A DNA stretch of 64,000 nucleotides from a virus (IMGVR_UViG_2695420859_000012); one strand, 5' to 3'; shown: positions 1,177 through 29,797, numbered from the stretch's first letter. The notes: generated by a model not told the origin, from the sequence alone. Numbers and translations: made by a program.

Positions 1177-1204
1177 CAGACACCTCAGAGTCATTTAAGA
1201 TGAC

Positions 1205-1396
1205 TTAAAGAGAGGTGTACAGCTCGGTATTCAGACCAGTCCACTGACGGCCAACGCCGACAACTTCACCGATACCTTTGTCTTCACCCAATTTGTTTAC
1301 TTTGATGCCAACGTACCCAGGCTCAACACGATCGCAGCCTGTAAGACCCATTGTGCAAACAGCAGCCACGATCACTGCCAGTAAACCTTTCTTCAT
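1205..1396 (-). CDS. Small lipoprotein, function unknown
   Basis: 63 aa; signal peptide with lipobox LTGC (MKKGLLAVIVAAVCTMGLTGC). Confidence 0.5.
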   Translation of the reverse strand: MKKGLLAVIVAAVCTMGLTGCDRVEPGYVGIKVNKLGEDKGIGEVVGVGRQWTGLNTELYTSL

Positions 1397-1399
1397 TAC

Positions 1400-1600
1400 T
1401 TACTTCCCCTTCGAATTAATTAGTGACTTCAGAAAGTTACGACCAACATTAAAGCCGATAACAGGAGCGCCAAAAGCAACAATGATTCCAAGCATTACGG
1501 CAATATCGCTTTTAGCCGAGATCAGCGACGGAACCAGCAAACAGTAGATGAAAACTACAGATATACCTGTAGCCACTGCCATCAGATAGAGTTTGATCAT
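1400..1600 (-). CDS. Small hydrophobic membrane protein, function unknown
   Basis: 66 aa, two hydrophobic segments; abuts the lipoprotein gene. Confidence 0.4.
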   Translation of the reverse strand: MIKLYLMAVATGISVVFIYCLLVPSLISAKSDIAVMLGIIVAFGAPVIGFNVGRNFLKSLINSKGK

Positions 1601-1690
1601 GTGTTTTCCTATGTGGCTATTGTGTGTAGATGGTGAGTAAGTGTTTATATATTTTCAAGGTATAAAGGCGTCCATTCGGACGCCTGAAAA

Positions 1691-4030
1691 TTAATCTTCT
1701 AATTCATCTGTCGGTGATGTCTTCTCGCGCCTGTCATCTATTGCCTGTAACGCAGCAATGATTTCAGCTAATGGCTTCTCCCGGTACATCTCGACGATCT
1801 GTGATTTGGTGTATTTCTTCTCGCCAATTTCCACACGCCCGCTGGCGCTCTTGGGCAGGTATCCTTCCTCCAGCATGTATTCAACCAGAGACTCGACGAC
1901 GTCCAGCCCGCGAGTCGGGTCGAAGTAGAATTTCCATGAGCATTTGCCAAACGGAGGCGCGACTTTGTTTTTAATGCACTCGGCGCCAACGTCCTGTCCG
2001 ATCTTCTCTTTGCCATCCTTCATGACGGATGCACCCAGACGGATGCGCACCGACGCGTAGAACTTCGGAGAGTCGCCACCCGGAGACGTAGTCGGATCGC
2101 CAAACATCACACCAATTTTGGTACGCACCTGGTTCAAGAAGATGATGCACGCGTTGTACTTACGCGCCCAAAGCGCCAGAGTAGGGAAGTTCGCACTTGT
2201 CGCGCGCGCCAGCGCCGTGTTGTCGTTCATGTTCAGCTGATCTTTGTCTTTCGCAGTGCCTTCTGCCATCTTGTCGAACTTCTCAGCCTTCGAGTTCGGA
2301 ACCATCGACGCCAGAGAGTCGGCTACGATGCAGATAGGGGCTGTTTCCGGAATAAGCTCTTCGTCGCGCACCAGCTTGAGGATTGTGCCGATCAGCTCTA
2401 CGGAGTCTTCGAAGGTATCCGGCTGTTTGTAGACCCACTGACCGTCATCCTCATCTGCGTTCAGGCCATTGGCTACAGCCAGGCCAACGTCAAAACTGTT
2501 TTCATGATCGAGGAATACCGCCAGACCATCTTGTTTTTGAGCGGAGATCATCGCTGCTGTTGCAAGGAATGTGTTGTGGCTGATAATCCCGTTAGACCAG
2601 AAAGAGTGTGTTTCCGGCATCGCTACGTCGAACGTTGGTGCTTCACCTTCCTCAATAGCCACGACTTCGTCGTAGAACAAGTTAGAGCCAATTACCGCTG
2701 CCAGTTGTGCAAACAGATGCTCGTTAAAACGATTCTTTCTGCCAATGAAGGAGACATAGATTTCTCGCAGTTTGTCTATTCCGACACGATCGCCGCGGCC
2801 AATAACGTGGTCTACCAGAGCGTAGTCTTCACGGGTGGTCTTGGTGAGCGACTCGTAGAGTGATTTCACTAAGCCGCTGATGTGCGGAACATAGCCTGAG
2901 TAAGTGCGGTCAAAACCAATGTCCCGTTTGGTTGCCACTGATAAACGTGCCGGAGATTCGAAACCAATCGTTGACAGAAAAAGGTCGTAATTAGAGCCAC
3001 TGAATGACAGCCGGTAATATGTATTTTCATAACCCGCGACGTGTTTTTCAGAGATAGTTGACGTAATCCCCAGATTCAGGAGCATGAGGCGAATTTGCTG
3101 TAGCAGCAGCCCACTCGCGCTCACAACCTCAATGCAGCGACCATCATTGACGTGGCATTCCAGCTCAAAGTAGCCGCGAAGGAATGCAATTTGAGCCTCG
3201 CTATTGGCGCGACGCACACTCAACGGAACCTGCTTGCCAGCAGCTTTCTCATACTCCAGACCATATTCTTTAAAAAGCAGCGAACGCACCTCTTTGCTAA
3301 ACAGCACATGGTCTTCCGAGCCGTTATGTTTTCTCGTAACTGGCATCTTGTCTGATACCAGCGAAATGAGGCGGTAGTACTCATCCTTGATGAAAGGATC
3401 TGTGTTAGAAAAATTCACTGAATTTTCAGAGGCGACGTATCCGTCAGCAATTAAATAGCCCATCAGTTTTGCGATATTGGCATCCAGGTGCTGATCGCCG
3501 AATTGATGTGTGCCAACCATTGAAGGAATCGTGTCGCCTACACTGATTTTTTCAGCATGTCGCCAGACGACATTACCTAAGTCGTCAACCACACGGATTG
3601 GGTGACGGAACGTAGCCTCGATATAACCGCCTGATGCCAGCTTAATACGCTTGAATTTGCGACGGTTGTTCCATGTCAGGTGTGAGGTCTTCTCTATCAC
3701 GCCATTTTCATTGATGAGTCCAACGTTATGCTCTACATCGCGAGTAGTGCATGTCGCTTTGTACCCTTCAATCTCAAACAACTCTTTCACTGTTACCATT
3801 CCACGCTCCGTCAGCAGCATGGTGTCTGCGGTAACACATTTCCCTGCACTTGGAGGACCGAATACTTCGACGATACGACCACATGGGAAGCCGCCATCGT
3901 AACGACCAGAAATAGCTTTGTTTAACGGTGGAAAGCCTGTATCAATCCAATGAGTTACTTTCTGAATTTCGTCGTTGCTACCGATTTTCTTTTTCAGAGC
4001 AAGTGCCAGTGCGGATTTTCCTTTTGCCAT
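1691..4030 (-). CDS. recA: RecA-family recombinase interrupted by an intein in the Walker A P-loop
   Basis: N-extein ends GRIVEVFGPPSAGK, C-extein resumes TFLATAAM... and contains IIFLNQVRTKIGVMFGDPTTSPGGDSPKFYASVRIRL, closely matching bacterial RecA as recalled; exteins total 357 aa. Confidence 0.85.
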   Translation of the reverse strand: MAKGKSALALALKKKIGSNDEIQKVTHWIDTGFPPLNKAISGRYDGGFPCGRIVEVFGPPSAGKCVTADTMLLTERGMVTVKELFEIEGYKATCTTRDVEHNVGLINENGVIEKTSHLTWNNRRKFKRIKLASGGYIEATFRHPIRVVDDLGNVVWRHAEKISVGDTIPSMVGTHQFGDQHLDANIAKLMGYLIADGYVASENSVNFSNTDPFIKDEYYRLISLVSDKMPVTRKHNGSEDHVLFSKEVRSLLFKEYGLEYEKAAGKQVPLSVRRANSEAQIAFLRGYFELECHVNDGRCIEVVSASGLLLQQIRLMLLNLGITSTISEKHVAGYENTYYRLSFSGSNYDLFLSTIGFESPARLSVATKRDIGFDRTYSGYVPHISGLVKSLYESLTKTTREDYALVDHVIGRGDRVGIDKLREIYVSFIGRKNRFNEHLFAQLAAVIGSNLFYDEVVAIEEGEAPTFDVAMPETHSFWSNGIISHNTFLATAAMISAQKQDGLAVFLDHENSFDVGLAVANGLNADEDDGQWVYKQPDTFEDSVELIGTILKLVRDEELIPETAPICIVADSLASMVPNSKAEKFDKMAEGTAKDKDQLNMNDNTALARATSANFPTLALWARKYNACIIFLNQVRTKIGVMFGDPTTSPGGDSPKFYASVRIRLGASVMKDGKEKIGQDVGAECIKNKVAPPFGKCSWKFYFDPTRGLDVVESLVEYMLEEGYLPKSASGRVEIGEKKYTKSQIVEMYREKPLAEIIAALQAIDDRREKTSPTDELED
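2573..3838 (-). mobile_element. Intein (about 422 aa) with LAGLIDADG homing-endonuclease domain, inside the recA P-loop
   Basis: Begins with Cys immediately after GPPSAGK and ends ...IISHN followed by Thr; LAGLIDADG-type blocks LMGYLIADGYV and FLRGYFELECHVNDG. Confidence 0.8.
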
Positions 4031-4032
4031 GA

Positions 4033-4305
4033 TCAGGCTCCTTTTGTTTCGTTGATTCGTTTTAAAGCGGCGGATTCATCGAATACAATCGCATCGTGGT
4101 TAAGGAGTCTGGATACACGAGCGAGGATTTTTACGACCTGCTCGCTGACTAATCCAAACTCGCGATCTGTCGCTTTCATTCCGGCAGCGCCTAGAATTGA
4201 CGGCAGTGCGATGACAGCGTACTCACCGTGATAAAAGACAATCTCTTTTGCCAGTTGGGCAGGGGTGGTTGTAGCGCCATTAATAATTGATTTAAGCATT
4301 AGCAA
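4033..4305 (-). CDS. Hypothetical protein
   Basis: 90-aa ORF packed between exonuclease and recA genes. Confidence 0.4.
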   Translation of the reverse strand: MLMLKSIINGATTTPAQLAKEIVFYHGEYAVIALPSILGAAGMKATDREFGLVSEQVVKILARVSRLLNHDAIVFDESAALKRINETKGA

Positions 4306-5294
4306 TACCTTTCGAATGGAAGAACATACACTTCAAGGTCTTCAAGGAACGAACGGAAATTCAGCTCGTAGCACAGTTGCTCGAATGCTTTCACGTCACG
4401 ATTGCCTTTGATTGTTTCGATTTCGGTAGGCGGAAACTTCGTCTCAATCAGGTTCATTAGCGTGATGTTTCTCTTGAACGCTTCGAGCATTCGACAGCCT
4501 GTTTTCTCGTTGAAGGCATTCTTCGCTAGTTTGTTGAAGGCGGTCTTATGGCGTCCTTTGTCAACCACGATTGAGCCGTCGTTGATGCCGCGTACCATCG
4601 TTGCGACACTTCCCCATTCATGCAGCAGCTCTTTCGCACCGCCAGCACCAATGCCACCAACACCGCTAATGTTGTCCGATTTATCGCCTTGTAATGCTTT
4701 TGCTTCCAAAAATGCGCGAGGAGTAGCGAATCCTGTCAGCTCCGCAAATTGCTCAAAATTAACCTGCTTGTTTTTGGCGTCTTCACGCAGGCTTACCCAG
4801 CTTACGTTTTCACGAACTAACTGAAGCCAGTCGCTATCGCCTGTTAACAGATAGATGTGTTCAACGGTTGGCTGCGGTGCCATGCGGGATACCAGCAGCC
4901 CGGCCAGATCATCCGCTTCTGCATCTTTTGCAATGAGTTGGGTAACTCCAAGCGCGGTCATCATTTTGAGGATGTATGGCTTCTGGATAGCAAAGCCTTC
5001 CTTCATCTTTTTCATATCAGGATCGTCGTCGCGATTTGCTTTGTAGTCCGGGTAAAAGTCGCGACGCTTGTCACTAAATCCATCCCAAAGAATCATAGGT
5101 CGGGCATGGAGGATGGAGGCATAACGACGGACGTTCTTAACAAAGCCGAAAGCAGCCTGTACTTCCATTTCGCCGTTGTGCAATTTGTCAGATTGTTGGT
5201 GGTAATAACCCAGGCTATTGCCATCTACGAAGAGATAATTCACCGGTACATTCCTTCCAAAAAGTAAGGCGTCCGTAGACGCCTTACTGGTCAC
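4299..5294 (-). CDS. 5'-3' exonuclease / flap endonuclease (FEN, RNase H-like)
   Basis: AKDAEADDLAG acidic motif and H3TH-like GDKSDNISGVGGIGAGGAKELL. Confidence 0.75.
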   Translation of the reverse strand: MTSKASTDALLFGRNVPVNYLFVDGNSLGYYHQQSDKLHNGEMEVQAAFGFVKNVRRYASILHARPMILWDGFSDKRRDFYPDYKANRDDDPDMKKMKEGFAIQKPYILKMMTALGVTQLIAKDAEADDLAGLLVSRMAPQPTVEHIYLLTGDSDWLQLVRENVSWVSLREDAKNKQVNFEQFAELTGFATPRAFLEAKALQGDKSDNISGVGGIGAGGAKELLHEWGSVATMVRGINDGSIVVDKGRHKTAFNKLAKNAFNEKTGCRMLEAFKRNITLMNLIETKFPPTEIETIKGNRDVKAFEQLCYELNFRSFLEDLEVYVLPFERYC

Positions 5295-5303
5295 GTAATG
5301 GGA

Positions 5304-6332
5304 TTACAGAGAGTCCAGCTCTCTCAGTAGGTCATCCAGACCTTCATCTTCCGTCGCAGATGCGGCTGCTACAGATGTCGTTGCGACTGCTTCAGACTCT
5401 TTGACTGATACTGCAACGGCAGCGGGACTTGCTTCTGGTTTAAATTCAGTTTCAACGGCACGGAGGATTTCTTCATCAACCAGACTGGTTGGTTCAGAAG
5501 CTGGGGTATGAGCGGTAGCTACAGCAGTCGCACCCTCCGTATGACCAGTGACAGAGCCAAATCCAGGTAGTGCCGCAGCCGATGTTTTCGCGGTTGAGGA
5601 AATTGCTGGTGCAGATGCTGCGGCAGTTGGTGCAGCGATGCCAATCAGACGACCCATAGTGCGAACTGTCGACAGAAGACGAGTTTCATCAGCCTGATTT
5701 GCGTATGCGATCAGATCATGCTGGGTATTCCAGAATTTATCTTCGATATCGCCTTTGTAGACTTTACGCTTAGGCGAGACGTCATATTTGGTATCGCGAC
5801 CAGAGCCAGTACGTTTAATCAGGAATGCGTAGCCTTCCTCTTTGCTCAGTGGATTGCCGATATCATCAGCGATGTCTTCGGTGATTGCTTTGCAGATATC
5901 ATCGAATACAGTAGACGGCAGCTCGATTAACTGGCATTTCTCAGCATCTGCGAAATCCTCACGAGCAGAAAGAATGCCGTTGACCAGGTAGCGAGGAGTG
6001 GCACGCATTTGACCGATGCGTTCTTCCATTGCTTTGTTACCCTTGTGACGAGCGCGACCTTCCATCACCATTTCGCATAGCTGACAAGCGCGACCGTGAG
6101 TATGTTGCTCACAAATATAAGCGTTGGTTGCTTCTTTACCTTCCTCGTTCTGATACTTAACGTAGTGCATACCGAAAGTCTGGAAGAACTTACCGTTTGG
6201 GTCGTCTTTATTCGGGAAGATGCGGATATAGTTGACGCCGTCTTTTAAGCGAGTCAGATCAACGTTGTTACCACGTTTGGCGGCAATGTCTTCACGAGTT
6301 TTGTTAAGCAAATCAAGTAATGTCTTAGACAT
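5304..6332 (-). CDS. Single-stranded DNA-binding protein, T4 gp32-like
   Basis: Recalled similarity to T4 gp32 around the zinc-binding region (IRIFPNKDDPNGKFF...CEQHTHGRACQLCE); Ala/Ser/Thr-rich acidic C-terminal tail. Confidence 0.6.
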   Translation of the reverse strand: MSKTLLDLLNKTREDIAAKRGNNVDLTRLKDGVNYIRIFPNKDDPNGKFFQTFGMHYVKYQNEEGKEATNAYICEQHTHGRACQLCEMVMEGRARHKGNKAMEERIGQMRATPRYLVNGILSAREDFADAEKCQLIELPSTVFDDICKAITEDIADDIGNPLSKEEGYAFLIKRTGSGRDTKYDVSPKRKVYKGDIEDKFWNTQHDLIAYANQADETRLLSTVRTMGRLIGIAAPTAAASAPAISSTAKTSAAALPGFGSVTGHTEGATAVATAHTPASEPTSLVDEEILRAVETEFKPEASPAAVAVSVKESEAVATTSVAAASATEDEGLDDLLRELDSL

Positions 6333-6449
6333 GTGTTTCTCCTTGTTGTGATTTGGCCGATGGCGCTATGCGCGTTGGGCTTTCGTTCATTCGTGGCTCT
6401 TTCGAGCTGTTAAATGATAGATCAGTACTTACTTATTATCTATCAAAAA

Positions 6450-6905
6450 TCAACGGGGAGTAATAAAGCGTTCAGAGCCTAATCGCTCTAATTCAACGAT
6501 GGCCATCTTTGACGCCTGAACGATCATGTCTCGGCGATGCGAAAAGGCGGCGACAGCATGTTTGTATATGTCTGCGATGTGCCGTGCTTCATCCAACTTC
6601 TGCCTTTTAGACAGATACTGTGGGTTTGTTTTAACCTTAGCGTCCAGTACAGATTCGTTGAACTTAATGCCGTTCATACTCAAGTTCTTACGCTCTGTGT
6701 CGTATAGCTTTGCTTCAACAGCTTCAAGGTTAAGTTTTGCCTCTGCGACACTTCTTTCTGCATGAGCGAGTTTTGAGCCATACTCCATTAAAAGGCGGGG
6801 TTGTCTACGCCAGACTTCCTCCAGATTGTCTCGGTCAAACTCGAGATCAGACATTATTTTCTCGTAAATATCGGCGATCATGCACATTTCCTTATCACTT
6901 ATCAT
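6450..6905 (-). CDS. Hypothetical protein (position suggests a replication/recombination accessory)
   Basis: 151-aa ORF between SSB and DnaE genes. Confidence 0.4.
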   Translation of the reverse strand: MISDKEMCMIADIYEKIMSDLEFDRDNLEEVWRRQPRLLMEYGSKLAHAERSVAEAKLNLEAVEAKLYDTERKNLSMNGIKFNESVLDAKVKTNPQYLSKRQKLDEARHIADIYKHAVAAFSHRRDMIVQASKMAIVELERLGSERFITPR

Positions 6906-7007
6906 TTTGTATTGATTATATCATTGTAATGATGAGGCAATGAGCTTGAAGATAGGGGGGGTGAGGGGATAAGGGAAAACATGGCCTTTATGGCCATGTT
7001 TATTGGA

Positions 7008-8177
7008 TCACGTCTTAATAGTTTCTGCTACGTCGGCTAATATCGCTTCTAGTCGTTCTCCCTCTTCAGGTCTGAAGTAAAGAATGTTGGGGTTAAACCC
7101 GTAAAAGACAGTAACGTCAAGGTCTGGAAGATACTCCTTCCTGCCGACCAAATCGGATGGCTTGTTTTTGTTGTTAAACAATGAAGTTGCCCGGCTGCCA
7201 CACGTCAGCACATAGGTCGGACGCACCAGATTGATCTCTTCACGCATAAAGTCGGTGAACTGGCCGATCTCGTCTTTGGTGTAGTCTTTTTCTTTGTCTT
7301 TAACCTTCTTGCAAACACCTGTGACATAGAGATCGCCCATGCGTAAATCTCCAGCCGTCAATAGCTTGGCCTTAAAGTCGTCGTATCCGTTCTCCATAAA
7401 GTAACCGGTTCGAGCATCATTGCCGTTCGCATTGTCCAGAATGATCATGATTTTCGGCTTAATACCAATGCTGGGGCGGATTAGTTCATCACCTAAGCCC
7501 ATTTCAGCCGCCATCCGCGTCATGAGTACGTTAATTTCAGCCGAACGTTTGGGGTTCATCTCAAACGGACGTGAGGCTTTAACTGCGTCTATGACAAGGT
7601 TTCCCATCAATTCAGCCTGGTCGCGTAGGCGCTCTGGATCAGTTGCTGGCAGACTGCCTGGCTCGATGGATGCAAACGCCCCTACTTTTTGCAGCGATTC
7701 GCGCACTCGACTATTACAGGCACGTTTCTCGACAGCTTCTTCGAATTGCGCCAGTGACTCGAATTTGCCGCCAACTTTTTCTCGCGCTCTCATGATGGCT
7801 TGGCAGCCATTCTCAGAACACCCCTTCACAGCAGAGAAGGGCGCATACAGCACCTGGCTGCCATCTTCAAGCGTGCGGATCTCGATTCGGTTAGATGACA
7901 CGTTAACGTCTGGTGGCAATACGCGAATGCCATAGGTCAGCGCATCTTTAACCAGCCCCTGGTGTTTATCTTCGCCAAGAATAGTGAGAGCAGCAGCGAA
8001 AAACTCTGCGGGATAATGAGTTTTCAACCACATAGATTGATAACTGATTAAGGAGTAAGCAACAGAGTGTGATTTGTTGAAGGCATACGCGCCGGATTTC
8101 TCAAACATATTCCAGATTTCTTCGGCTCGTTCGTGCGTCAGGCCATTGCTCTCTTCGACAACACCGGTAATTTTCAT
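7008..8177 (-). CDS. dnaE: DNA polymerase III alpha (DnaE-type), C-terminal fragment
   Basis: ERAEEIWNMFEKSGAYAFNKSHSVAYSLISYQSMWLKTHYPAEFFAA matches the DnaE finger region as recalled; GAGG 7 nt before the ATG, which overlaps the HNH stop (ATGA). Confidence 0.8.
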   Translation of the reverse strand: MKITGVVEESNGLTHERAEEIWNMFEKSGAYAFNKSHSVAYSLISYQSMWLKTHYPAEFFAAALTILGEDKHQGLVKDALTYGIRVLPPDVNVSSNRIEIRTLEDGSQVLYAPFSAVKGCSENGCQAIMRAREKVGGKFESLAQFEEAVEKRACNSRVRESLQKVGAFASIEPGSLPATDPERLRDQAELMGNLVIDAVKASRPFEMNPKRSAEINVLMTRMAAEMGLGDELIRPSIGIKPKIMIILDNANGNDARTGYFMENGYDDFKAKLLTAGDLRMGDLYVTGVCKKVKDKEKDYTKDEIGQFTDFMREEINLVRPTYVLTCGSRATSLFNNKNKPSDLVGRKEYLPDLDVTVFYGFNPNILYFRPEEGERLEAILADVAETIKT

Positions 8178-8908
8178 GCAGTCACCTCATCAATCTTCAC
8201 GAACTCATACCCATTGGAGGCCAGCCAGTTCCGTTGGCGCTCCCAGCTCCATATCTCTTCACGCATTTCACTATGCAGGCGAATGTGGGCGTCTTCTGGA
8301 AGTGCTACAAGATTCCCAGGGGCGTTATCTATCGTATCGCGGTTAATATGGTGGACATGTTCATCGTCACGTAGCTCCCGACCGAGACGTTCTTTCGCTA
8401 TCAATCGATGAACGTATTCGTATTGCGAAACGCCATTGTTACCAACCAGCTGCATCATGTAGCCGTTGGTTTTTACGATGATGCCACCTTTGTAGTTGTT
8501 CGCTTCTTCTCCGATCTTTCCGCGTTTGGCAGCCGCCAGCTTTTCCTTCGTCTCCGCGCGGATTGTTCTGCCGGTTAGCTTTTTCGAAACGGTGGCCACT
8601 CGCTCATCGATATCAGCACGCAGACCGGCATTCCACGAGGTTTTCCCATACATAGGGTTGCCAGTGCCAGTCCGGGCTTCGGAGAGACGCTTCATACGTT
8701 CGTCATTATTTTTGTTTTTGCCACGATTCCAGGCTGGGGTAGCGGAGATCCGCGCGCTTCCGCGCCTGATCCCCCATTTGGCTAATAAGCGGTCAATATT
8801 TGCCTTGCTGCAACCAGCTTCGGCGGCAATGTCTTCTTTTCTCATCAGGTCAACCATGTAACGCTGACGTAACCATTCTTCTGTGATTTTGTACTTCGTA
8901 CTCGGCAT
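8174..8908 (-). CDS. HNH homing endonuclease inserted within dnaE
   Basis: HNH motif EHVHHINRDTIDNAPGNLVALPEDAH; separate frame and start. Confidence 0.8.
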   Translation of the reverse strand: MPSTKYKITEEWLRQRYMVDLMRKEDIAAEAGCSKANIDRLLAKWGIRRGSARISATPAWNRGKNKNNDERMKRLSEARTGTGNPMYGKTSWNAGLRADIDERVATVSKKLTGRTIRAETKEKLAAAKRGKIGEEANNYKGGIIVKTNGYMMQLVGNNGVSQYEYVHRLIAKERLGRELRDDEHVHHINRDTIDNAPGNLVALPEDAHIRLHSEMREEIWSWERQRNWLASNGYEFVKIDEVTA

Positions 8909-8956
8909 TTCTAAGACTCACTAAACAAATTGTTTTCTTATCTTATAAATTAATTC

Positions 8957-11320
8957 TCAAATATCGAAGCTCGTTATGTCGGCATTTATTGCCATTGCTT
9001 CGGCATAAGTGCGACGCTCACCATCAGCACAAAGTAGGCGTGCTGCTTTATGGATTTTTCTCGTAGAACCATCATCCAGTGACACTGTCACCCAGCCTTC
9101 CTCCGCTCGCTTAATGAAGTCGCCGCCAATGGATTTCATTTTCTCCATATCTTTTTTCCCGATCGCTTTCCTGACCGAGTCTGCTTCCGCCATTGAGAAC
9201 CCCGCCAAGATTCGCGTAGCAGCCATGATCTGTTCCTGATAAATCAGAACTCCGTTTGTGTCGCGAGAGATGTCGTCCAGCATTGGGTGTAAGGAATGTG
9301 GGGCCATGAAGCCTTTGGCCACGGACACATAATCGTCCAACATGCCGGATTGAATCGGGCCAGGTCGGAAGAGCGCAGTTGTAGCGACGACCGTTTTAAA
9401 GCTCATTGGCTCAATTCCACCACCTAAATCTTTAAGCAGCTTGCGCATTGGGCCTGATTCAAGCTGGAATACGCCCTGTGTATACCCTGCAGCAAAACCA
9501 TCCAGCACCTTGCGATCTTCAAGAGAAATGGCATCAAGATTGATATCTTCACCTGTGTTCTCTTTTATGTAGCGTTTTGCACTATCGAGCAAATCGAGAG
9601 TTGCCAGGCCAAGCACGTCCAGCTTAATTAGGCCCATAGCCTCGCAGTAACGCTTGTCAAATGCGATACAACGCGCGTCACCACGGCGTTCAACCGGTGT
9701 ACGTTCTGTCAGAGGAACACCTGCTACGATCATCCCTGCCGCATGTCTACCAAAGCCACGCATAAGGCTTTGTAACTTGCAGGCTGCATTGAATGCATCA
9801 GGATATTTTGTTGCGTATTTGTCGAGACTTGCCAGTTGTTCGCGCAGCTCTTCCAATGGAAGGCTATCATCCTCGACGTTCTTCAGTTCTTTTGATACCG
9901 CCATATCTGCGGACTCCACACCATAAATACGAGCGGTGTCACGTAGTGCAGAGGCTGCGCCCAGGTAGGTGAAGTTCGGAATGCCTGCAACGTAATCTTC
10001 GCCGTAGCGTTCATTCAGATACTCGATCACCTCATGGCGACGTGCCTGGCTGAAGTCCAAGTCCGCATCCGGCAAGTCGAGACGCTCAGGGTTGATGAAA
10101 CGCTCAAACAGAAGACCGTGACGGATTGGGTCGACGTTGGTTATGCCTATGCACCACGCCACCAGAGAACCGGCAGAGGAACCACGACCAGGCCCGACAG
10201 GAATGCCAGTTTCACGGCTGTGATTCATCAGATCGCGTACCATCAGGAAGTAACCACAAAATCCCAGGCGAGTAAGCGTGTCCATTTCGTACTTAAGTCG
10301 CTCAACATAAACCCTGTTCTCAGAAGCAGGTGGTGTGTATCCAAACTCTTTTGTGGTAAGACGTTTACGCAGCCCTGCAACAGCCAGTTTCATCAGCGTT
10401 GCAGGTTCGTCGTCTGCCATCTTGGGCAGTGCTGGTGGCAATTCATGCCAGCGCCATGTGCAGGCATCGATAATGGAGTCCTGCGTTGTTGAGGCCATTG
10501 CAGCTGTTACCGGCACATCCATGCGAACGGAGAAGGCTTTAAGCGCCTCAAGGAGATGGCGACGACCATTGATGGCGTTATCTCGCTGGTGGGGGATACG
10601 CAGACGATGCGGCTGGTCGATTTTTATGTTGTTCGTAACCATGTGCGCAATGTCTTTAATGTCTGCATCGTCGATCGATTCGTAATAAGCGGGATAGAAC
10701 GCTACTGGCTCTATTTTCAGTGCGCTGGCGACTTTCATCGCCCGGACGTTAATCTGGTCGTAGAATGGGGTAGGGTGCGGATAAACCACACTATAGAAGT
10801 TGTCTTTTCCACCCGCTGTAATCAGTGTGCTTATGATTTTTGCAAAATCGTTGCGTTGGAACACGCTACCGATGTCGGAAGTAAGCAGGATGATGTTGCC
10901 TTTGGCATATGTAGAAACCAACTGTTCGAGCGAGAGACGCGGTACAAAGTAGAACTGTTCTCGTGTGTTGGCCGCCGTCATTAGTTCGCAGATGTCGCGA
11001 TATCCTTTCTCATTTTTAATTAGAGCGGTAAACGAGTAGTTACGTCCTCGCTCTAATGATTCCATACATCTCATAGATTCTTTAGCAAGTTTAGCCCGGT
11101 GCTCGTATGTGGGATCATCAACAATGTTTAGTTTCACACCACAAATAACCGCCATGTCGTCACCAGCGGCACGTTGTAGTGGAATAACGCTCGCAATATT
11201 CATGCTATCTGCTGAAATTACAGCGGTGTAGCCAGCTTCTCTGGCAATCTTCACCGCGTTTTCTGCTTTTAGAGCCGACTCCCCAAGTGAGAAGTCAGTT
11301 CGAACCATCAGTGCCTTCAT
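8957..11320 (-). CDS. dnaE: DNA polymerase III alpha (DnaE-type), N-terminal part
   Basis: GYFLMVRDLMNHSRETGIPVGPGRGSSAGSLVAWCIGITNVDPIRHGLLFERFINPERLDLPDADLDF matches the DnaE catalytic core as recalled; ORF stops 44 codons after the point where similarity to uninterrupted DnaE ends. Confidence 0.85.
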   Translation of the reverse strand: MKALMVRTDFSLGESALKAENAVKIAREAGYTAVISADSMNIASVIPLQRAAGDDMAVICGVKLNIVDDPTYEHRAKLAKESMRCMESLERGRNYSFTALIKNEKGYRDICELMTAANTREQFYFVPRLSLEQLVSTYAKGNIILLTSDIGSVFQRNDFAKIISTLITAGGKDNFYSVVYPHPTPFYDQINVRAMKVASALKIEPVAFYPAYYESIDDADIKDIAHMVTNNIKIDQPHRLRIPHQRDNAINGRRHLLEALKAFSVRMDVPVTAAMASTTQDSIIDACTWRWHELPPALPKMADDEPATLMKLAVAGLRKRLTTKEFGYTPPASENRVYVERLKYEMDTLTRLGFCGYFLMVRDLMNHSRETGIPVGPGRGSSAGSLVAWCIGITNVDPIRHGLLFERFINPERLDLPDADLDFSQARRHEVIEYLNERYGEDYVAGIPNFTYLGAASALRDTARIYGVESADMAVSKELKNVEDDSLPLEELREQLASLDKYATKYPDAFNAACKLQSLMRGFGRHAAGMIVAGVPLTERTPVERRGDARCIAFDKRYCEAMGLIKLDVLGLATLDLLDSAKRYIKENTGEDINLDAISLEDRKVLDGFAAGYTQGVFQLESGPMRKLLKDLGGGIEPMSFKTVVATTALFRPGPIQSGMLDDYVSVAKGFMAPHSLHPMLDDISRDTNGVLIYQEQIMAATRILAGFSMAEADSVRKAIGKKDMEKMKSIGGDFIKRAEEGWVTVSLDDGSTRKIHKAARLLCADGERRTYAEAMAINADITSFDI

Positions 11321-11498
11321 GTGTTTTTACCTTTCTGGTTTTTTTGATTTTGTCATTGGGGAAGCCTACGAACTTCCCATGCATCGAAATCGCAACTTCT
11401 TTTGCTGATTGGTGACAATCGGGCTTGTCTGGACACACCAGACAAGCCTTACCTGTTTCAGAAGCAGCGATAAGAGAGCCGAAACATCCTTTACGCAC
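11295..11498 (-). CDS. Small Cys-rich hypothetical protein
   Basis: 67 aa with CLVCPDKPDC; overlaps dnaE start by 26 bp. Confidence 0.3.
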   Translation of the reverse strand: MRKGCFGSLIAASETGKACLVCPDKPDCHQSAKEVAISMHGKFVGFPNDKIKKTRKVKTHEGTDGSN

Positions 11499-11500
11499 GA

Positions 11501-12736
11501 TTAACCAAATATTTTTTGAACAACTTCACGAGCCGCTTGTGCAGAAGCTGAAGGGAGTTTGTTAATGAAAGAACGCTCAATACCTGTCACAAAGTCGCCT
11601 CGCATCATTCCAATCTTGGCTGACAACAAAAGTTCACGAGGGCCAATTGGCTGACTAATAAGGTGTTCTTCGTATCCATCGCGAACGATACCGGCAAACT
11701 TAACCATCTTTTCAGCGTATTCATCCACGATGCCTGCATTTGTCAACATGTTGATCTCTGCGTCTTTGCTCATGTATTTCACATTCGAAACGATGCCAAA
11801 ACGCGAAAAGTTCGCGGCGTTCTGGATGTTTGTACCCTGGTACAAGCCGGTTTCATCACCAGATCCGTTCGTGTTGCCAGTGCCAATGAAAGCAAACCGT
11901 TCATGCGGAGTAATGCGACGCCATTCTGGAGTTGCCTCTTTGATGACCAACGCTTCACCTTCCAGCACTGGCTGATACACGCCAAGAATTTGTGGAAACG
12001 CAAAGTCGTATTCATCCGCGAGGTAAACCCAGCCATGCTTCATTGCGAGCGCAAGCAAGCCAGGTTCGAAATACGTAGAGCCATCACGCGCCAGAATTTG
12101 CCCCGTAACATGTGCCTCTTCCATTGATGCTGTATGTTGGGCACGGATCAACGGACGATTGAGCAAAGCACATAGCTGTGTAGGCAATGACGATTTGCCT
12201 GTTCCTGCATGACCCCACAAATAGCCAGGTATGCCAAGTTCAAGCATCATGAAAATATCTTTGATCAGTTCGAAGTCGCCATATACGTAGCCCTTCTTCA
12301 CTTCTGGAACGAACTCTGGATACGGCGTATTGACGTTGACGCTAACCATGAGCGGCGTCCCACGTTTTGTTCCGAGTTCTTCCACCGTTACGTTTAGCAG
12401 TTCGTGAGCTGCGACCAGATCTGTCTTGTACTCAACTGTGCCTGTGTAGCCAGGGCTACTGGTCAAGACAGAAGATTTGGCCATTTCGCTTTTTTGCTCG
12501 GCACGTTTAGCTTGAATTGCATCAAGTGCCTTTTTCGATAGCGTTGGTTCATCTGGAAACTGCGTTGTGTACATTTTCAGTACGGTGTCAGGATCGGCAT
12601 CTTTTACTGACTCAGGAATGCCCTCGCAATTACCATTGGCTACATGGGACTTAAAATAGTGAAATGATTTGCCGCACCACTTGCAAACAAGGTAATCAGA
12701 AGGATTTTTTTCATTTTGCAGTGCAGTAGTCGTCAT
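11501..12736 (-). CDS. AAA+ ATPase, MoxR/CobS-like
   Basis: Walker A GHAGTGKSS; N-terminal CxxC; adjacent to a vWA protein. Confidence 0.7.
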   Translation of the reverse strand: MTTTALQNEKNPSDYLVCKWCGKSFHYFKSHVANGNCEGIPESVKDADPDTVLKMYTTQFPDEPTLSKKALDAIQAKRAEQKSEMAKSSVLTSSPGYTGTVEYKTDLVAAHELLNVTVEELGTKRGTPLMVSVNVNTPYPEFVPEVKKGYVYGDFELIKDIFMMLELGIPGYLWGHAGTGKSSLPTQLCALLNRPLIRAQHTASMEEAHVTGQILARDGSTYFEPGLLALAMKHGWVYLADEYDFAFPQILGVYQPVLEGEALVIKEATPEWRRITPHERFAFIGTGNTNGSGDETGLYQGTNIQNAANFSRFGIVSNVKYMSKDAEINMLTNAGIVDEYAEKMVKFAGIVRDGYEEHLISQPIGPRELLLSAKIGMMRGDFVTGIERSFINKLPSASAQAAREVVQKIFG

Positions 12737-19507: not shown

Positions 19508-19594
19508 CTGGCGGAGAGTAATGGAATCGAACCATCATCGCTTGCGCAATGGGACGGTTTTCAAGACCGCTTGAGCACCATGCTCCCTACTCTC
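19508..19594 (-). tRNA. tRNA-Ser (anticodon UGA), type II, CCA encoded
   Basis: Own cloverleaf: acceptor GGAGAGU/ACUCUCC, anticodon loop CUUGAAA, long variable arm, T-loop GGTTCGATTCC. Confidence 0.7.
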
Positions 19595-19694
19595 CAGCTA
19601 TTGTGATGGTCGGTGCTGAACTCCGACACAGGGTTGTAGCAAGCCCCGCAAAGCGCGCACTACTGTAGTTGCGGCACATCAGCCTGTGCATTCA

Positions 19695-19773
19695 TCACAA
19701 CGGTAAGATCACTACCTTTCGACCAGTCATTGTGCACATGAACGACGATTAACCGTAATGATCTTATCGTTGT
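19695..19773. repeat. Stem-loop of the CACAACGGTAAGA family
   Basis: cacaacggtaagatcac pairs with atgatcttatcgttgtg. Confidence 0.55.
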
Positions 19774-19824
19774 GTTGTGAAGCCAGATGCTTATCTTCTG
19801 GTTGCTTCAAAGAGCTGCACTTCC

Positions 19825-19913
19825 TCACAACGGTAAGAGCACTGGTCTGACTCTATCGATTTACGGCCTTGTGGGTCAGTATCGCCGATTCGCCCAATGC
19901 TCTTACCTGTTGT
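19825..19913. repeat. Stem-loop of the CACAACGGTAAGA family abutting tRNA-Thr 3' end
   Basis: cacaacggtaagagca pairs with tgctcttacctgttgtg. Confidence 0.55.
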
Positions 19914-19914
19914 G

Positions 19915-19990
19915 TTGGTGCCGGTTAACGGACTTGAACCGCTGGCCATTCGCTTACAAAGCGACTGCTCTACCAACTGAGCTAAACCGG
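19915..19990 (-). tRNA. tRNA-Thr (anticodon UGU), CCA encoded
   Basis: Own cloverleaf: acceptor GCCGGUU/AACCGGC, anticodon loop UUUGUAA, T-loop GGTTCAAGTCC; 76 nt. Confidence 0.65.
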
Positions 19991-19994
19991 CAAT

Positions 19995-20081
19995 TTGGTG
20001 GGGAGTGATGGAGTCGAACCACCCGAGTCGCCATGACAGTAGATTTACAGTCTACACCGCTACCTCTACGGACTAACTCCC
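19995..20081 (-). tRNA. tRNA-Tyr (anticodon GUA), type II, CCA encoded
   Basis: Acceptor GGGGAGU/ACUCCCC, anticodon stem GUAGA/UCUAC with loop CUGUAAA, long variable arm. Confidence 0.7.
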
Positions 20082-20086
20082 CTAAA

Positions 20087-20161
20087 TTGGCGATGGTGGG
20101 TGGATTCGAACCACCGACCAGTTGGTTAACAGCCAACTGCTCTACCGCTGAGCTACACCAT
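20087..20161 (-). tRNA. tRNA-Asn (anticodon GUU), CCA encoded
   Basis: Acceptor GAUGGUG/CACCAUC, anticodon stem GUUGG/CCAAC with loop CUGUUAA, T-loop GGTTCGAATCC. Confidence 0.75.
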
Positions 20162-20430
20162 CAATTCAGCACTGCCAGTATTTATTACTCAACAGTGCCA
20201 ATCGCGACGGTTTAGTTTCTGCCAGGAAACGCACCGCTACTTGCACTTTTCGTTAGTGCCAGACGCTTTCGACTTCGCTCAATAGTAGAAGGCAAAATCT
20301 TTAAGTAGATGATGTTTCTGAGGACAGCACCTACTTTGTAATTTATACAATGTGATGTATGGAATCATTTGTTGTGAAAACAGGCACCAATGGCAACAGT
20401 GGTTAAACCTACACAACAATCCCGTCTTCA

Positions 20431-24384: not shown

Positions 24385-24509
24385 ACCAACTCCTAGCTAA
24401 CAGATGAAAGTATTCTTACAAAAAACTAAGTATGTATCTACTTATCATTTTAGGCGCAATAGTTCCCTATACGAAGATGCCGGGCTTATAGTCTGCCCGG
24501 CATTCACCA

Positions 24510-24923
24510 TTAATGAGCTACAGCCTCACTGTTGCACATCTTTCTGTAGACCTGCTTATAACGCTGTAAGTCATGAGGATCATTAGGTGCCAACGACTTC
24601 GATAGGATTTTGTATACCACCCCTTTCGAAAACATGCCCTTTGGCTTCATTTCGAGTTCAACAACATATGAGTGATAGCCCACGTATGCACCAAAGCCAT
24701 TTTTGGCGTTCAATTCTCCGCACACAAAGCCTGTCACACTCCCATCGTCATGATCAGTCCTGACAAACTTATCTTTCCTAAACATCACCGACGTGGGATC
24801 TTTCATATCATCCGCAATTGCTTGTTGGCCCAGAGCAATAGCCTTCTCGTCTGTAGGCTTACACCCCACTAAAGCAAACAAAGACAATAAAGCTCCTGTT
24901 AAAATCAGCTTATTTTTGCTCAT
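24510..24923 (-). CDS. Lipoprotein, function unknown
   Basis: 137 aa; lipobox LVGC. Confidence 0.5.
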   Translation of the reverse strand: MSKNKLILTGALLSLFALVGCKPTDEKAIALGQQAIADDMKDPTSVMFRKDKFVRTDHDDGSVTGFVCGELNAKNGFGAYVGYHSYVVELEMKPKGMFSKGVVYKILSKSLAPNDPHDLQRYKQVYRKMCNSEAVAH

Positions 24924-25156
24924 GTTGGCTTCCCTTTATTTATATTTATCGCAGGTATTAGTTAATCAAAACACGAGCAGTGCCACAATAATTAAATGGC
25001 GTACTATTTCTTATGGTTATTAGTTTCCTAGTAACTTTACCGACCATAAACTAAATCAACAAAGCTGACATATTAACTAAATTTAAGTACCATTTTTCGC
25101 ACACTTGACACTTGCCGCGTCTAAACTGTTCATCCTATATCAACAGAACAAAAAAT

Positions 25157-26302
25157 ATGAAATACATAAAATCTTCATCGTTGCTGGCATTAACTTTGCT
25201 TTTTAGCTCTGGATTCGTTAACGCAGACAATAAACAAACGCTGATAGAAGCCGCTACCGCAGGGGATACCGCAGCACAAAGTGAGTTAGGGACAAATTAT
25301 TTTGATGGTATCAATGGTTTTGATAAGGATGTAGTTGAGGCCAAGAAGTGGATTGATCTCGCTGCAGAAAAGGGAGACAAAGTAGCATATTATGCACTTG
25401 GGGTTATGTACACATTTGGCGAGGGTGTAGATAAAGACTTAAATAAAGCAGTTGAGTACTACAAACTTGCGGGAGATGCTCGTGAAGGTAGAGCCTATAA
25501 CAATCTTGGTGCTATTTATCAAAAGGGGATGCTTGGTAAAGTAGATCATGCGCTCGCCATTAAATACTTCAAACTAGCCTCTGATGCCGGGTATGTTAAA
25601 GCTAGCTACCTTCTTGGTGCGTATTACCAATATGGTAAAGGTGTACAAAAGAGTTATAAAAAAGCTTTTACTTATTACAAAAAAGCGGCGGATCAAGGTA
25701 GTTCAGATGGCATGTTCGCATTAGGCACCTTATACGATGACGGTTTAGGTGTTAAACGCAACGATGCCGAAGCAATTAAGTGGTATAAAAAAGCTGCTGA
25801 ACTCGGAAACGCCGATGCCATGACAAATCTTGGCATTATGTATGAGTATGGTGAAGGGGTTAAAAAAGACTATAAAAAAGCAGCTGAGCTTTATCAGGCT
25901 GCTTGTGATAAAGAAGATAAAAATGGCTGTGATTACATTGCAGAACTGAAAGAAAGCGGCAAATATCGAGCGCCGGCTTCCAAAGCCAAAACAAAATCCG
26001 CCACCCAGCGACTTATTGCTAAATCCATTGATAAGGGCGTTAACGCTACATTTACCTGGCAGGGTGATGATGCTACCTTCACCGCTAATGATGGCAAAGT
26101 TGACTGCACCTTCCTGAAGGATTTTTCAGAGAAAGGAGGCAATCTGGCTACCTCGTTTGTTTGCACCGATAACGTTCAAATCATACTGAAGCAATTCAGA
26201 GATACCAAGAATGCCTACCTCGCGGTAATGACTGACAACTTCAACACAGAAGTTAAATCATTTTCGGTCAATGTGTACGTGACTAATACTGGTTCAAACT
26301 AA
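25157..26302 (+). CDS. Secreted Sel1-like repeat protein with unknown C-terminal domain
   Basis: Start re-called at ATG 25157 (MKYIKSSSLLALTLLFSSGFVNA); tandem Sel1-type repeats (KWYKKAAELGNADAMTNLGIMYEYGEGV...); about 115-aa non-repeat C-terminus. Confidence 0.7.
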   Translation: MKYIKSSSLLALTLLFSSGFVNADNKQTLIEAATAGDTAAQSELGTNYFDGINGFDKDVVEAKKWIDLAAEKGDKVAYYALGVMYTFGEGVDKDLNKAVEYYKLAGDAREGRAYNNLGAIYQKGMLGKVDHALAIKYFKLASDAGYVKASYLLGAYYQYGKGVQKSYKKAFTYYKKAADQGSSDGMFALGTLYDDGLGVKRNDAEAIKWYKKAAELGNADAMTNLGIMYEYGEGVKKDYKKAAELYQAACDKEDKNGCDYIAELKESGKYRAPASKAKTKSATQRLIAKSIDKGVNATFTWQGDDATFTANDGKVDCTFLKDFSEKGGNLATSFVCTDNVQIILKQFRDTKNAYLAVMTDNFNTEVKSFSVNVYVTNTGSN

Positions 26303-27547
26303 TGCTGCTATGCCTTTTACCTTGCTTAAAAGTTCAAGCTGTCGTGAGTAAGGTTTTGCGCAATAGTAGGCTTTGATAATCTGCCCCGGGGTCGCATCGC
26401 CGGGGTCGAGTCCTTCCTCGCCCAAACATGCAATTTTCACATTAAGACCGATACTGGTCAGTCGCCTGGCTGCGGCCATAGTGTTTCGTATAGCTTGCTT
26501 TTCACTATCCCACATCATGATCACATTACGTAATCCACGCGCCTTGAGCGTCAGGAACGCGCCCAACTGATCTTCTGCATCCTGAGTGGTGTTACCAGAT
26601 AGATGCATCCCGAACGTTCCTATTGGTTCCACGTAATCGCGTAATGTTTCTTCGTCAAAAATAGCTCGTTTGACCCCCATAACATCGAACGCCCCCTCAC
26701 AGACAACTACAGTCTGTTTGCCGACTGCATTGTGGCCGTTGTAGAGAAACTTACCTGAAGCTGGAAGCTGCATAGGAAAGAGGTAGCGGCGTTCTGCTGT
26801 ACCGGTAATGTCTCGTCCTTGAAATGTCTTCATTACCCCATCCAGATCGTAAACCGGTATCAGTATTCGCATATCGAAAATCTGTCCTTTAACCTGATCT
26901 GTATACGGATCTACATAAGCGTGCTTGCCTTCGACGCAGTATCGTAGGTCAAAATACTTTGCCATTTCAGGCGATATATTTCGTTCAACCAGATAGTCTG
27001 GAAGATGGCCATCTATAGGAAGATCGTAATGACGAGGGAGTGCAACTGGTCCCTCTAACTCGACTGTGCTTGCAAGCACTATCTCTTCTTTCTTTGGTGC
27101 CCACCCCTGGGAAAGAAGAGCGTTCTGCACATATTCCTCGAACTGTCGTCGTGATTTACCGCTGTAGTGCTTGAGGAAGACCAGCTTATTGAACTGAATC
27201 TCTTCGGGATGATCACCAGCGAAGCATTTACCGACGCCACTGGTCAGATTGAAATATACCTTCCAGTTGGAGCTGCCGCATACCGGACACTCCTTGATAT
27301 TCACTTCACGACCGCGAGTACTCACGCCTCCACGTCGATAAACGATACCTTCAGTATCCAACCATTGTTCAAAATCTAATTCGGTAATTAGCTCTTTCAG
27401 CTCGCTCACGATAATTCCACTTTTAACAGGCAATATTGTGACCAACCTAAATGTTGATATAACATAAAGGCTCATGTGTTTTTCTTTTGTGGTTTGGCAA
27501 AAGAAAAGTTGTTTCACCAATGAATCAAGCGTGGAGGTGTTCTCCAC
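26294..27547 (-). CDS. DNA primase (zinc finger + TOPRIM)
   Basis: CPVCGSSNWK...CFAGDHPE; TOPRIM-like VVVCEGAFDVMGV with downstream acidic residues; follows helicase gene. Confidence 0.7.
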   Translation of the reverse strand: MENTSTLDSLVKQLFFCQTTKEKHMSLYVISTFRLVTILPVKSGIIVSELKELITELDFEQWLDTEGIVYRRGGVSTRGREVNIKECPVCGSSNWKVYFNLTSGVGKCFAGDHPEEIQFNKLVFLKHYSGKSRRQFEEYVQNALLSQGWAPKKEEIVLASTVELEGPVALPRHYDLPIDGHLPDYLVERNISPEMAKYFDLRYCVEGKHAYVDPYTDQVKGQIFDMRILIPVYDLDGVMKTFQGRDITGTAERRYLFPMQLPASGKFLYNGHNAVGKQTVVVCEGAFDVMGVKRAIFDEETLRDYVEPIGTFGMHLSGNTTQDAEDQLGAFLTLKARGLRNVIMMWDSEKQAIRNTMAAARRLTSIGLNVKIACLGEEGLDPGDATPGQIIKAYYCAKPYSRQLELLSKVKGIAALV

Positions 27548-28940: not shown

Positions 28941-29681
28941 TTAATTAGATAGGGGATCAATAAACCGCCGTGCTTCTTCCAGTTCTTCTGGAAAGTGGGC
29001 GGAAATAAGGCGCTCTGGAACGATTTCCATTAGCCAGATAGCGGAGAAAATTGCGCGTATGCGCTTGCTGCGGGGGATGGTGCGTAAACGCTCCAGAATC
29101 CACTCAAAATAGCTTTCCTGGATCGGGTTGAACTGCATGTCTCCCATATGCTTAAAGCTAACTAGAGAGTCATCCAGACGGGTTGTTGCGCGTCTGGCTA
29201 ATTTCTCTTCGAATATCTCAACCAGCTCTGGCTGCCATAAATGCTGTGGGCGCGGCAGCTTGTCCCACAGCCGTCGTGCAGCTGCGGAAAGAACGGTGGA
29301 GATAAAGTAGTCGTATGAGCAGCAATAGCGGTCAGCAAACTGGCGTGCTTTCCATAGAGACGTTTTATTGGCAGTCGACAACTCCTGATAAGGCAGGCGT
29401 TTTAACCCGGTGGTGAACGGAGCTGTTTCAAAGTGTTCGCGACCGTGCGTCAGCATGATATTTGAGTACTGACGTTTGTATGCCTCCGTAAAAAGACAGG
29501 TGGCCATGAGAGGATGCATGTCGCGGTAATCAAACCACTTCGTCTCGAAGAGTTCAGCCTCGTCTTTACAGCGCGACAAACCAATGTTTTCAGCGACCCA
29601 CTTGTCCATAACAGCGGTATTCCACTCTGTCATGAAGTCGTACTGGTCGTTGTCGATGGTATCGAAAAAGATTTGGCTCAT
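28941..29681 (-). CDS. Hypothetical protein, first gene of helicase/primase operon
   Basis: Start moved to ATG at 29679-29681 (AGGTGAG RBS; track ORF starts at GTG 29690); no recognisable motifs. Confidence 0.4.
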   Translation of the reverse strand: MSQIFFDTIDNDQYDFMTEWNTAVMDKWVAENIGLSRCKDEAELFETKWFDYRDMHPLMATCLFTEAYKRQYSNIMLTHGREHFETAPFTTGLKRLPYQELSTANKTSLWKARQFADRYCCSYDYFISTVLSAAARRLWDKLPRPQHLWQPELVEIFEEKLARRATTRLDDSLVSFKHMGDMQFNPIQESYFEWILERLRTIPRSKRIRAIFSAIWLMEIVPERLISAHFPEELEEARRFIDPLSN

Positions 29682-29797
29682 GTGGCTCACCTGGTAGGTA
29701 GTTACTTACTTATCACAATGAGCGGATGATAGCGACTGGTGGCAGTTTTTGGAAGTGGAAACGGAAGGGAGTTGTTCTGGTGGTGTCTTTTAAAAGA

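Follow-up and report, generated by a model that had tools for sequence, protein, structure and literature searches.

Lipoprotein and Sel1-repeat genes as independently acquired cargo at a hotspot of an SSU5-like phage-plasmid

Results

A two-gene insert in the replication region of a phage-plasmid

The DNA analysed here, hereafter ‘the window’, is a viral stretch of 64,000 nucleotides (IMGVR_UViG_2695420859_000012) which carries two divergently oriented genes for predicted exported proteins, that is, a lipoprotein gene on the minus strand (24510..24923) and a gene for a protein with Sel1-like repeats, the ‘Sel1 protein’, on the plus strand (25157..26302). Both open reading frames (ORFs) were found at these positions and are annotated identically by RefSeq on the Escherichia coli plasmid pM160133_p3 (NZ_CP022167.1, 113 kb), to which the 2.2 kb around the two genes are 100% identical. 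An alternative upstream TTG start of the Sel1 gene at 25112 was rejected, because the signal peptide would then be buried, and because the RefSeq start is the ATG at 25157. Dozens of further non-mobilizable E. coli plasmids of ~110 kb, including pECOH89, exhibit 96–99% identity to the 2.2-kb region, related plasmids of ~110 kb number in the hundreds, and the flanks of the locus also match the phages CMS-2020a, PhiR41_1 and Cyrano. The neighbouring ORFs code for an ATP-dependent DNA ligase, a DNA primase and a DnaB-like helicase, while ParA-like, tail-fibre, tail-tip and tape-measure genes are located farther along the window. The source element is a temperate SSU5-like phage-plasmid of ~110 kb which is collinear with phage genomes and comprises siphophage tail, replication and partition genes; the SSU5 group of phage-plasmids has been named and described (PMC7969092).

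Both genes are genuine optional cargo of this phage-plasmid. The backbone is collinear with PhiR41_1 up to window position 24445–24456 and then again from the primase stop region, and homology to relatives with an empty slot ends at 24456 and restarts at 26310–26349. The accessory insert containing both genes (~1.84 kb; 24457..~26293) is placed between the promoter/operator region of the phrog_4248 gene and the primase stop codon, where PhiR41_1 and the E. hormaechei plasmid pFJMB80005_2 have only ~14–22 bp. A 2.8-kb query (2801 bp) across the site matches 365 plasmids, 53 of which cover at least 80% of it, and E. coli relatives matching both flanks of an empty site span 952–967 bp of the query among the matches listed. 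Most related E. coli plasmids lack the insert, as do most collinear relatives altogether. PLSDB contains it in 61 of its 72,556 plasmids, with coverage of the whole insert reaching at least 80% in 49. Of 5426 complete E. coli genomes, 62 have the insert, in every case on a plasmid and never on the chromosome. Its G+C content is lower than that of the backbone (0.32 for the spacer between the genes and ~0.40 for the Sel1 gene, versus 0.45–0.51), and a repeat search revealed neither a target-site duplication nor att-like repeats at its borders.

Comparison of the slot among related phage-plasmids yields four states: empty, lipoprotein only, Sel1 only, and both. The lipoprotein gene occurs alone in Cronobacter sakazakii pCsaC757b and Salmonella pZ1322HSL0038-2 (59–61% protein identity), being located in these plasmids 32–56 bp downstream of, and co-directional with, the primase gene; the Sel1 gene occurs alone in Enterobacter cloacae pG6809-1 and in one E. 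coli contig. Likewise, tblastn searches detect the C-terminal domain of the Sel1 protein in 91 plasmids (Escherichia, Enterobacter, Citrobacter) and the lipoprotein in 81 plasmids (Escherichia, Cronobacter, Klebsiella and others), and the genus distributions of the two genes differ. The same slot also records loss and other cargo: CP088502.1 has a 276-bp deletion scar retaining only the 3′ ends of both genes (locus extract 2501–2776), and in CP099103.1 the site is taken by IS3, ISVsa5 and an anaerobic sulfatase maturase gene (locus extract 989–3513). The slot beside the primase stop is a general cargo hotspot with gain and loss, and the two genes are independently acquired cargo (‘morons’) that accumulated at this one hotspot and do not form a functional pair. 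Because each gene occurs alone in the same slot and the genus distributions differ, their divergent arrangement is a by-product of two separate acquisitions.

A preliminary description of the locus had reported a divergent pair of exported cargo proteins in the replication region of a temperate element. Its placement holds, with a 233-bp spacer between the genes and the ligase, primase and DnaB-like helicase genes around them, as does its assignment of the genes to the cargo of a temperate element, given the SSU5-like backbone and the many collinear relatives devoid of them. The ‘pair’ does not: an obligate association is rejected, the lipoprotein gene being found by itself in Cronobacter and Salmonella and the Sel1 gene in Enterobacter and some E. 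coli.

The lipoprotein and its family

The lipoprotein gene (24510..24923, minus strand) is preceded by a ribosome-binding site, AAAGGGAAG, located 6 nt ahead of the ATG, and encodes 137 residues. The N-terminus, MSKNKLILTGALLSLFALVG|C, combines a basic n-region with a hydrophobic core (Kyte-Doolittle peak 2.78), and its segment ALLSLFALVGC fits the PROSITE-style lipobox [LVI][ASTVI][GAS]C, with L-V-G-C21 as the lipobox proper. The lipobox cysteine is invariant in the ten closest relatives and visible in most of 68 aligned relatives, while Cys68 and Cys130 are conserved in at least 90% of the latter. According to the ‘+2 rule’, a Lys (and not an Asp) following the lipidated Cys predicts sorting to the outer membrane; the lipoprotein has Lys at +2 and is thus predicted to reside in the inner leaflet of the outer membrane. 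For the mature domain a cystatin/NTF2-like α+β fold is predicted. The best fold matches include cystatins and latexin, but NTF2-like and VirB8-like proteins score equally, and the similarity is weak and generic. Scans of Pfam (E up to 10), NCBIfam and PADLOC gave no match for the lipoprotein.

Whereas a word-index search retrieved close relatives only, an exhaustive HMMER search yielded 1346 cluster representatives at E up to 1e-3. An alignment of 68 members is characterized by the lipobox, the motif LKDPxSAxFR...VCGEVNAKNSFGAYxG and a conserved C-terminal Cys; the family core has no Pfam match in any member, and a profile search against PDB sequences came back empty. A few members carry C-terminal SPOR or SH3 (SH3_3) domains, and phage homologues are annotated as SPOR or PG_binding_1 proteins, fusions which hint at a role close to the peptidoglycan. 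The genomic settings are those of temperate phages. The P2-like Salmonella phage SEN5 has the family gene between ogr and int, and phage Fraca and a Xenorhabdus prophage have it between the tail genes K and I/J; in prophages of Klebsiella, Enterobacter and Pseudomonas, the tape-measure gene follows directly downstream of it. For two relatives of the lipoprotein, the contigs retrieved were no longer than ~1 kb. Among the 150 nearest up- and downstream ORFs at family loci, tape-measure families (TMP_3 in 9, TMP_2 in 4, HK97_TLTM in 3) and CI-type repressors (Peptidase_S24 in 6, HTH_3 in 6) are the commonest Pfam families. The lipoprotein belongs to a large, unnamed family of phage-borne cargo which has no Pfam model.

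The Sel1 protein and its family

The Sel1 protein (381 residues) consists of a signal peptide, about seven Sel1 hairpins, a variable linker and an all-β C-terminal domain of ~96 residues. Its N-terminus, MKYIKSSSLLALTLLFSSGFVNA|DN, has a basic n-region, a hydrophobic core (Kyte-Doolittle 2.46) and the V-x-A motif at positions −3/−1, so that cleavage of a signal peptide spanning residues 1–23 (25157..25225, plus strand) is predicted within ...GFVNA|DN, at VNA|DN; signal-peptide-like N-termini are also present in the full-length homologues. The Sel1-like repeat solenoid comprises residues 24–270 (25226..25966, plus strand) with Cys250 and Cys258 in the last repeat. The Pfam family Sel1 (PF08238) is matched with 175.9 bits, compared with a cut-off of 30.7, in 6 repeats, and an AlphaFold2 model built with 13 homologues exhibits the α/α hairpins of such solenoids, with 14 helices at a predicted local distance difference test score (pLDDT) above 95. 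A hypervariable linker rich in Lys, Ala and Ser follows (residues 271–282; 25967..26002, plus strand; disordered in the model at residues 275–282, with a pLDDT below 50), leading into the all-β domain at residues 283–378 (26003..26290, plus strand), for which the model predicts eight strands, with Cys317 and Cys336, at a pLDDT of 59–72. This domain is the best-conserved part of the protein: identity among homologues is 64–100%, versus 8–58% for the linker, 36 alignment columns in the domain are invariant, and all four cysteines of the protein (250/258 and 317/336) are invariant or nearly so. Neither Pfam nor a profile search of PDB sequences provided a match for the domain, and NCBIfam and PADLOC scans yielded nothing beyond repeat-level matches. 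With the domain alone as query, a word-index search for homologues gave no more than 3 near-identical fragments. As judged from sequence, the C-terminal β-domain is without a described relative.

With these features, the preliminary description of a lipobox lipoprotein and of a signal-peptide Sel1-like protein with a novel C-terminal domain is supported throughout, the former by its ORF, the lipobox pattern and the agreement with RefSeq, the latter by the V-x-A cleavage motif, the Pfam score and the orphan eight-stranded domain. All non-lipid cysteines of both proteins form conserved pairs (C68/C130, C250/C258, C317/C336), as fits disulfide-bonded, exported proteins folding in the oxidising periplasm, and these pairs argue strongly, along with the sequence rules, for export of both proteins.

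Full-length homologues at 50–60% identity have the same architecture, and in the distant ones the C-terminal domain is more conserved (64–78% identity) than the repeats (50–59%). Homologues are encoded at prophage ends after tail-fibre genes, in the same slot of Enterobacter and Citrobacter phage-plasmids and, in Pantoea, on the chromosome; the Sel1 family recurs as temperate-phage cargo. The repeat number varies, giving proteins of 335, 381 and 417–422 residues, and in one E. coli contig the 5′ half of the gene is unrelated, with homology restarting at window position 25772 (a mosaic gene). Such mosaic alleles and the varying repeat number (locus extracts L010 5861–6477 and L016 2206–3459) suggest recombination within the repeats. 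The closest known structures are those of generic secreted Sel1 proteins, namely EsiB (c5321), HcpC, LpnE and Oxalobacter proteins, with PA5086–PA5088 matching more weakly. We also observed a chromosomal homologue in Pseudenterobacter timonensis (extract 3768–11894) within an island containing CdiA fragments (Fil_haemagg_2, PT-VENN, DUF6862), a NERD protein and insertion sequence (IS) elements, a setting that makes a link to islands of contact-dependent inhibition (CDI) or toxin immunity possible.

Signals in and around the insert

The AT-rich region between the divergent genes (24924..25156, 233 bp, G+C 0.32) is presumed to be the promoter region for one or both of them. Directly after the lipoprotein stop codon, a G+C-rich, terminator-like stem-loop with a 9-bp stem is located (24476..24508, minus strand; −24 kcal/mol, z = −2.87). 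The Cronobacter and Salmonella plasmids that carry the lipoprotein gene alone have a stem-loop at this position too, with a U-tract in Cronobacter, and the hairpin travels with the lipoprotein gene across other genera. In three genera the hairpin is found with its arms swapped, GCCGGGC...GCCCGGC versus GCCCGGC...GCCGGGC (locus extracts L104 ~3925–3950 and L103 ~3925–3945), and to judge from these arms, conservation concerns the structure and not the sequence.

Just outside the left border of the insert, the backbone palindrome TAAGTA-N6-TACTTA (24427..24444) marks the start of the next transcription unit and is kept in relatives with and without the insert. Six copies are present in the window (at 18318, 20912, 24427, 29695, 40211 and 59119), compared with 0.15 expected by chance, and they are mostly located shortly upstream of gene starts, that is, of the gene at 18422, the phrog_4248 gene, the gene at 28941..29690 and the tail-fibre gene. 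The palindrome, conserved in the Enterobacter, Cronobacter and Salmonella relatives, is probably a phage-specific promoter/operator motif at the starts of transcription units. The cargo hotspot is an operon boundary, where the helicase-primase unit ends and the promoter/operator of the next unit is located.

At the opposite border, the Sel1 and primase genes converge with a 9-bp overlap of their stops (26294..26302), which is likewise found in Enterobacter and E. coli relatives. The last approximately five codons of the primase gene differ between insert-bearing and insert-free relatives. The primase ORF itself (26294–27547, minus strand) could start at a GTG to give 417 residues, while RefSeq has 371 residues (26294..27409) and the PhiR41_1 annotation 393. 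Elsewhere on the phage-plasmid there is a cluster of four tRNA genes (19509–20162, minus strand): Ser-TGA, Thr-TGT, Tyr-GTA and Asn-GTT.

Discussion

A proposed role in the cell envelope

The functions of the two proteins can be approached by analogy, and protection of the lysogen from within the envelope then appears to be the most likely role for both. The preliminary description had pointed to superinfection exclusion or host-envelope modulation as frequent roles of exported cargo; for the lipoprotein, the positions taken by its family in other phages lend this circumstantial support, and neither sequence nor fold connects it with any characterised exclusion protein. The reading we prefer, to which we assign a probability of roughly 0.45, is that of a two-gene cargo island at an inter-operon hotspot, both products of which most likely are envelope factors benefiting the lysogen or the phage. 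The lipoprotein would then block an outer-membrane or periplasmic step in the infection by incoming phages, as do T5 Llp or Cor, and might do so by inhibiting a tail-borne cell-wall hydrolase, as the fusions to peptidoglycan-binding domains and the adjacency to tape-measure genes suggest. The Sel1 protein would be a soluble periplasmic protein that binds, and either neutralises or recruits, a periplasmic protein partner. Its solenoid may provide the surface conferring specificity for protein binding, which would vary and recombine between elements, while the flexible linker would connect this surface to the small conserved β-domain.

Several observations weigh against this proposal: (i) both genes are located in the replication module and not, like llp and cor, beside receptor-binding genes; (ii) the plasmids with the lipoprotein gene alone have no obvious promoter after the primase gene, and expression may accompany that of the lytic replication genes rather than lysogeny; (iii) a promoter scan of 24924..25156 provided one weak σ70-like site on the plus strand (25065–25093, 9/12 matches) and none on the minus strand, a total not above chance; (iv) comparison of sequences, profiles and folds revealed no similarity of the lipoprotein to Llp, Cor, Bor, TraT or Spackle; (v) PADLOC provides no match for the lipoprotein and, for the Sel1 protein, only a repeat-level match to the tetratricopeptide-repeat part of PtuA (E 1.8e-5); and (vi) the model of the C-terminal β-domain is of only moderate confidence.

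Other explanations have to be considered for the insert as a whole. That it is selectively neutral passenger DNA would agree with its being dispensable, since most relatives do without it, and with the existence of IS-disrupted and deleted versions. Both reading frames are, however, intact across 80–100% nucleotide divergence, and homologues at 50–61% protein identity retain the signal peptides, the cysteines and the 36 invariant positions of the C-terminal domain, which makes neutrality very improbable. It is also hard to credit that the two proteins constitute a functional two-component unit, in which, for example, the Sel1 protein would dock on the lipoprotein to form a complex tethered to the outer membrane, with co-regulation from the divergent promoter region. 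In Escherichia phage-plasmids the genes do nearly always occur together (as in the 49 plasmids covering at least 80% of the insert), they share one common 233-bp intergenic region, and both products are predicted to be periplasmic. Yet there are related phage-plasmids in which only one or the other gene occupies this slot. Outside phage-plasmids the two families occupy different contexts and were never seen adjacent in the loci compared, and the genus distributions of the two genes differ.

For the individual proteins, more specific roles can be envisaged. The lipoprotein might be a periplasmic inhibitor of peptidoglycan hydrolases which, in the manner of T4 Spackle, stops incoming tails at the cell wall. 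Tape-measure proteins frequently carry cell-wall-degrading domains, and a tape-measure gene often follows directly after the family gene. In addition, SPOR, SH3_3 or PG_binding_1 domains are fused to some family members, and enzyme inhibitors (cystatins, latexin) are among the best fold matches. These matches are weak and generic, however, with NTF2-like and VirB8-like proteins scoring just as high, and there is no similarity to the Spackle, Ivy, MliC or Pli inhibitors; we regard this narrower role as unlikely. A comparably low likelihood is assigned to the Sel1 protein being an orphan immunity protein that protects lysogens against a competitor’s toxin acting in the periplasm, be it an effector of a type VI secretion system (T6SS), a CDI toxin or a colicin. 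Immunity proteins of T6SSs are encoded next to their cognate effectors. The Sel1 gene, by contrast, has replication genes beside it in the window, and its homologues are flanked by tail-fibre, IS or unrelated genes; neither in the window nor in any of the phage contexts does an effector gene adjoin it, and CdiA fragments are nearby only in Pseudenterobacter. Moreover, immunity proteins are matched only in the repeats and much more weakly than generic Sel1 proteins, the known immunity proteins have no conserved β-domain, and Sel1E is not clearly predicted to be exported. Less probable still is that the Sel1 protein is a host-interaction or virulence factor akin to EsiB, which binds immunoglobulin A (IgA), HcpC or LpnE, and aids pathogenic E. 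coli lysogens in animals, as the resemblance (28–32% identity) is confined to the repeat fold, a Sec signal alone provides no route across the outer membrane, and homologues are also found in plant-associated Pantoea and in environmental and livestock isolates.

It is tempting to speculate further. The lipoprotein could be the first noticed member of a large phage-borne outer-membrane family (1346 representatives, Proteobacteria) which blocks infection in the periplasm and is encoded near tape-measure and tail-tip genes because it neutralises the machinery by which tails cross the wall, while the β-domain of the Sel1 protein could be a new periplasmic module anchoring a fast-diversifying Sel1 surface. 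The proteins would then represent two new classes of prophage envelope defence, a prospect to which we assign a low probability.

In our literature search, we found neither protein described from phage-plasmids. Phage-plasmids of the SSU5 type are frequent in clinical Enterobacterales and are known to carry resistance genes, and knowledge of their cargo hotspots, and of the genes riding there, helps to read phage-plasmid accessory content. The lipoprotein family, being large and strongly tied to the tail and immunity regions of temperate phages, is a well-defined candidate for exclusion screens, and the Sel1 protein offers a compact case in which a variable binding solenoid is joined to a conserved orphan domain.

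Comparison with known systems

T5 Llp, a lipoprotein located in the inner leaflet of the outer membrane, binds and blocks the phage receptor FhuA (10.64898/2026.03.26.714494). The lipoprotein of the window resembles Llp, and Cor of phi80/N15/T1-like phages, in being a small phage lipoprotein predicted to reside in that same leaflet and in belonging to a family often linked to tail genes. In contrast, it is about twice as large, has a predicted cystatin/NTF2-like fold, is encoded in the replication module, and shares neither sequence nor fold similarity with them. Membership in the Llp, Cor or Bor families was rejected for lack of similarity, and the profiles of the lambda Bor/Iss and TraT families likewise did not match the lipoprotein, for which no Pfam family was found at E up to 10. 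With T4 Spackle, the periplasmic inhibitor of the gp5 tail lysozyme, a functional analogy is possible only in that the lipoprotein, too, might act in the periplasm to stop superinfecting phage at the cell wall; Spackle is helical, and its fold is unrelated to that predicted for the lipoprotein.

A functional precedent for a Sel1 protein as an immunity protein is provided by Klebsiella Sel1E (PMC7108748). Sel1E and Pseudomonas PA5086–PA5088 share with the Sel1 protein of the window the Sel1 solenoid, which in those proteins binds and neutralises an incoming toxin (similarity at E ~1e-14 to 1e-16). The protein described here differs by its extra β-domain and by having no neighbouring effector gene, and the similarity is generic to the repeat. 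Neither EsiB (c5321), HcpC and LpnE nor the Oxalobacter Sel1 proteins have a C-terminal β-domain, and their functions, IgA binding and interaction with host cells, require a surface exposure or secretion that is not indicated for the Sel1 protein of the window.

The closest parallel is with phage morons, independent transcription units that have spread among phages (PMC3594210). Like these, the two genes are optional, are located between conserved genes of collinear genomes (with empty, one-gene and two-gene states of a single slot), have a lower G+C content and encode predicted exported products; both families are also present at classical moron sites, that is, between ogr and int of P2-like phages, in tail operons and at prophage ends. 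As regards autonomous transcription, the lipoprotein gene has its own terminator-like hairpin, the promoter scan provided no convincing site, the Sel1 gene runs into the primase gene without a terminator, and in the relatives with the lipoprotein gene alone that gene looks appended to the primase operon. The two proteins belong to uncharacterised families, one of them large. As a moron island the locus is of an ordinary kind, the SSU5 group of phage-plasmids being well known, and it is in keeping with the current understanding of these elements.

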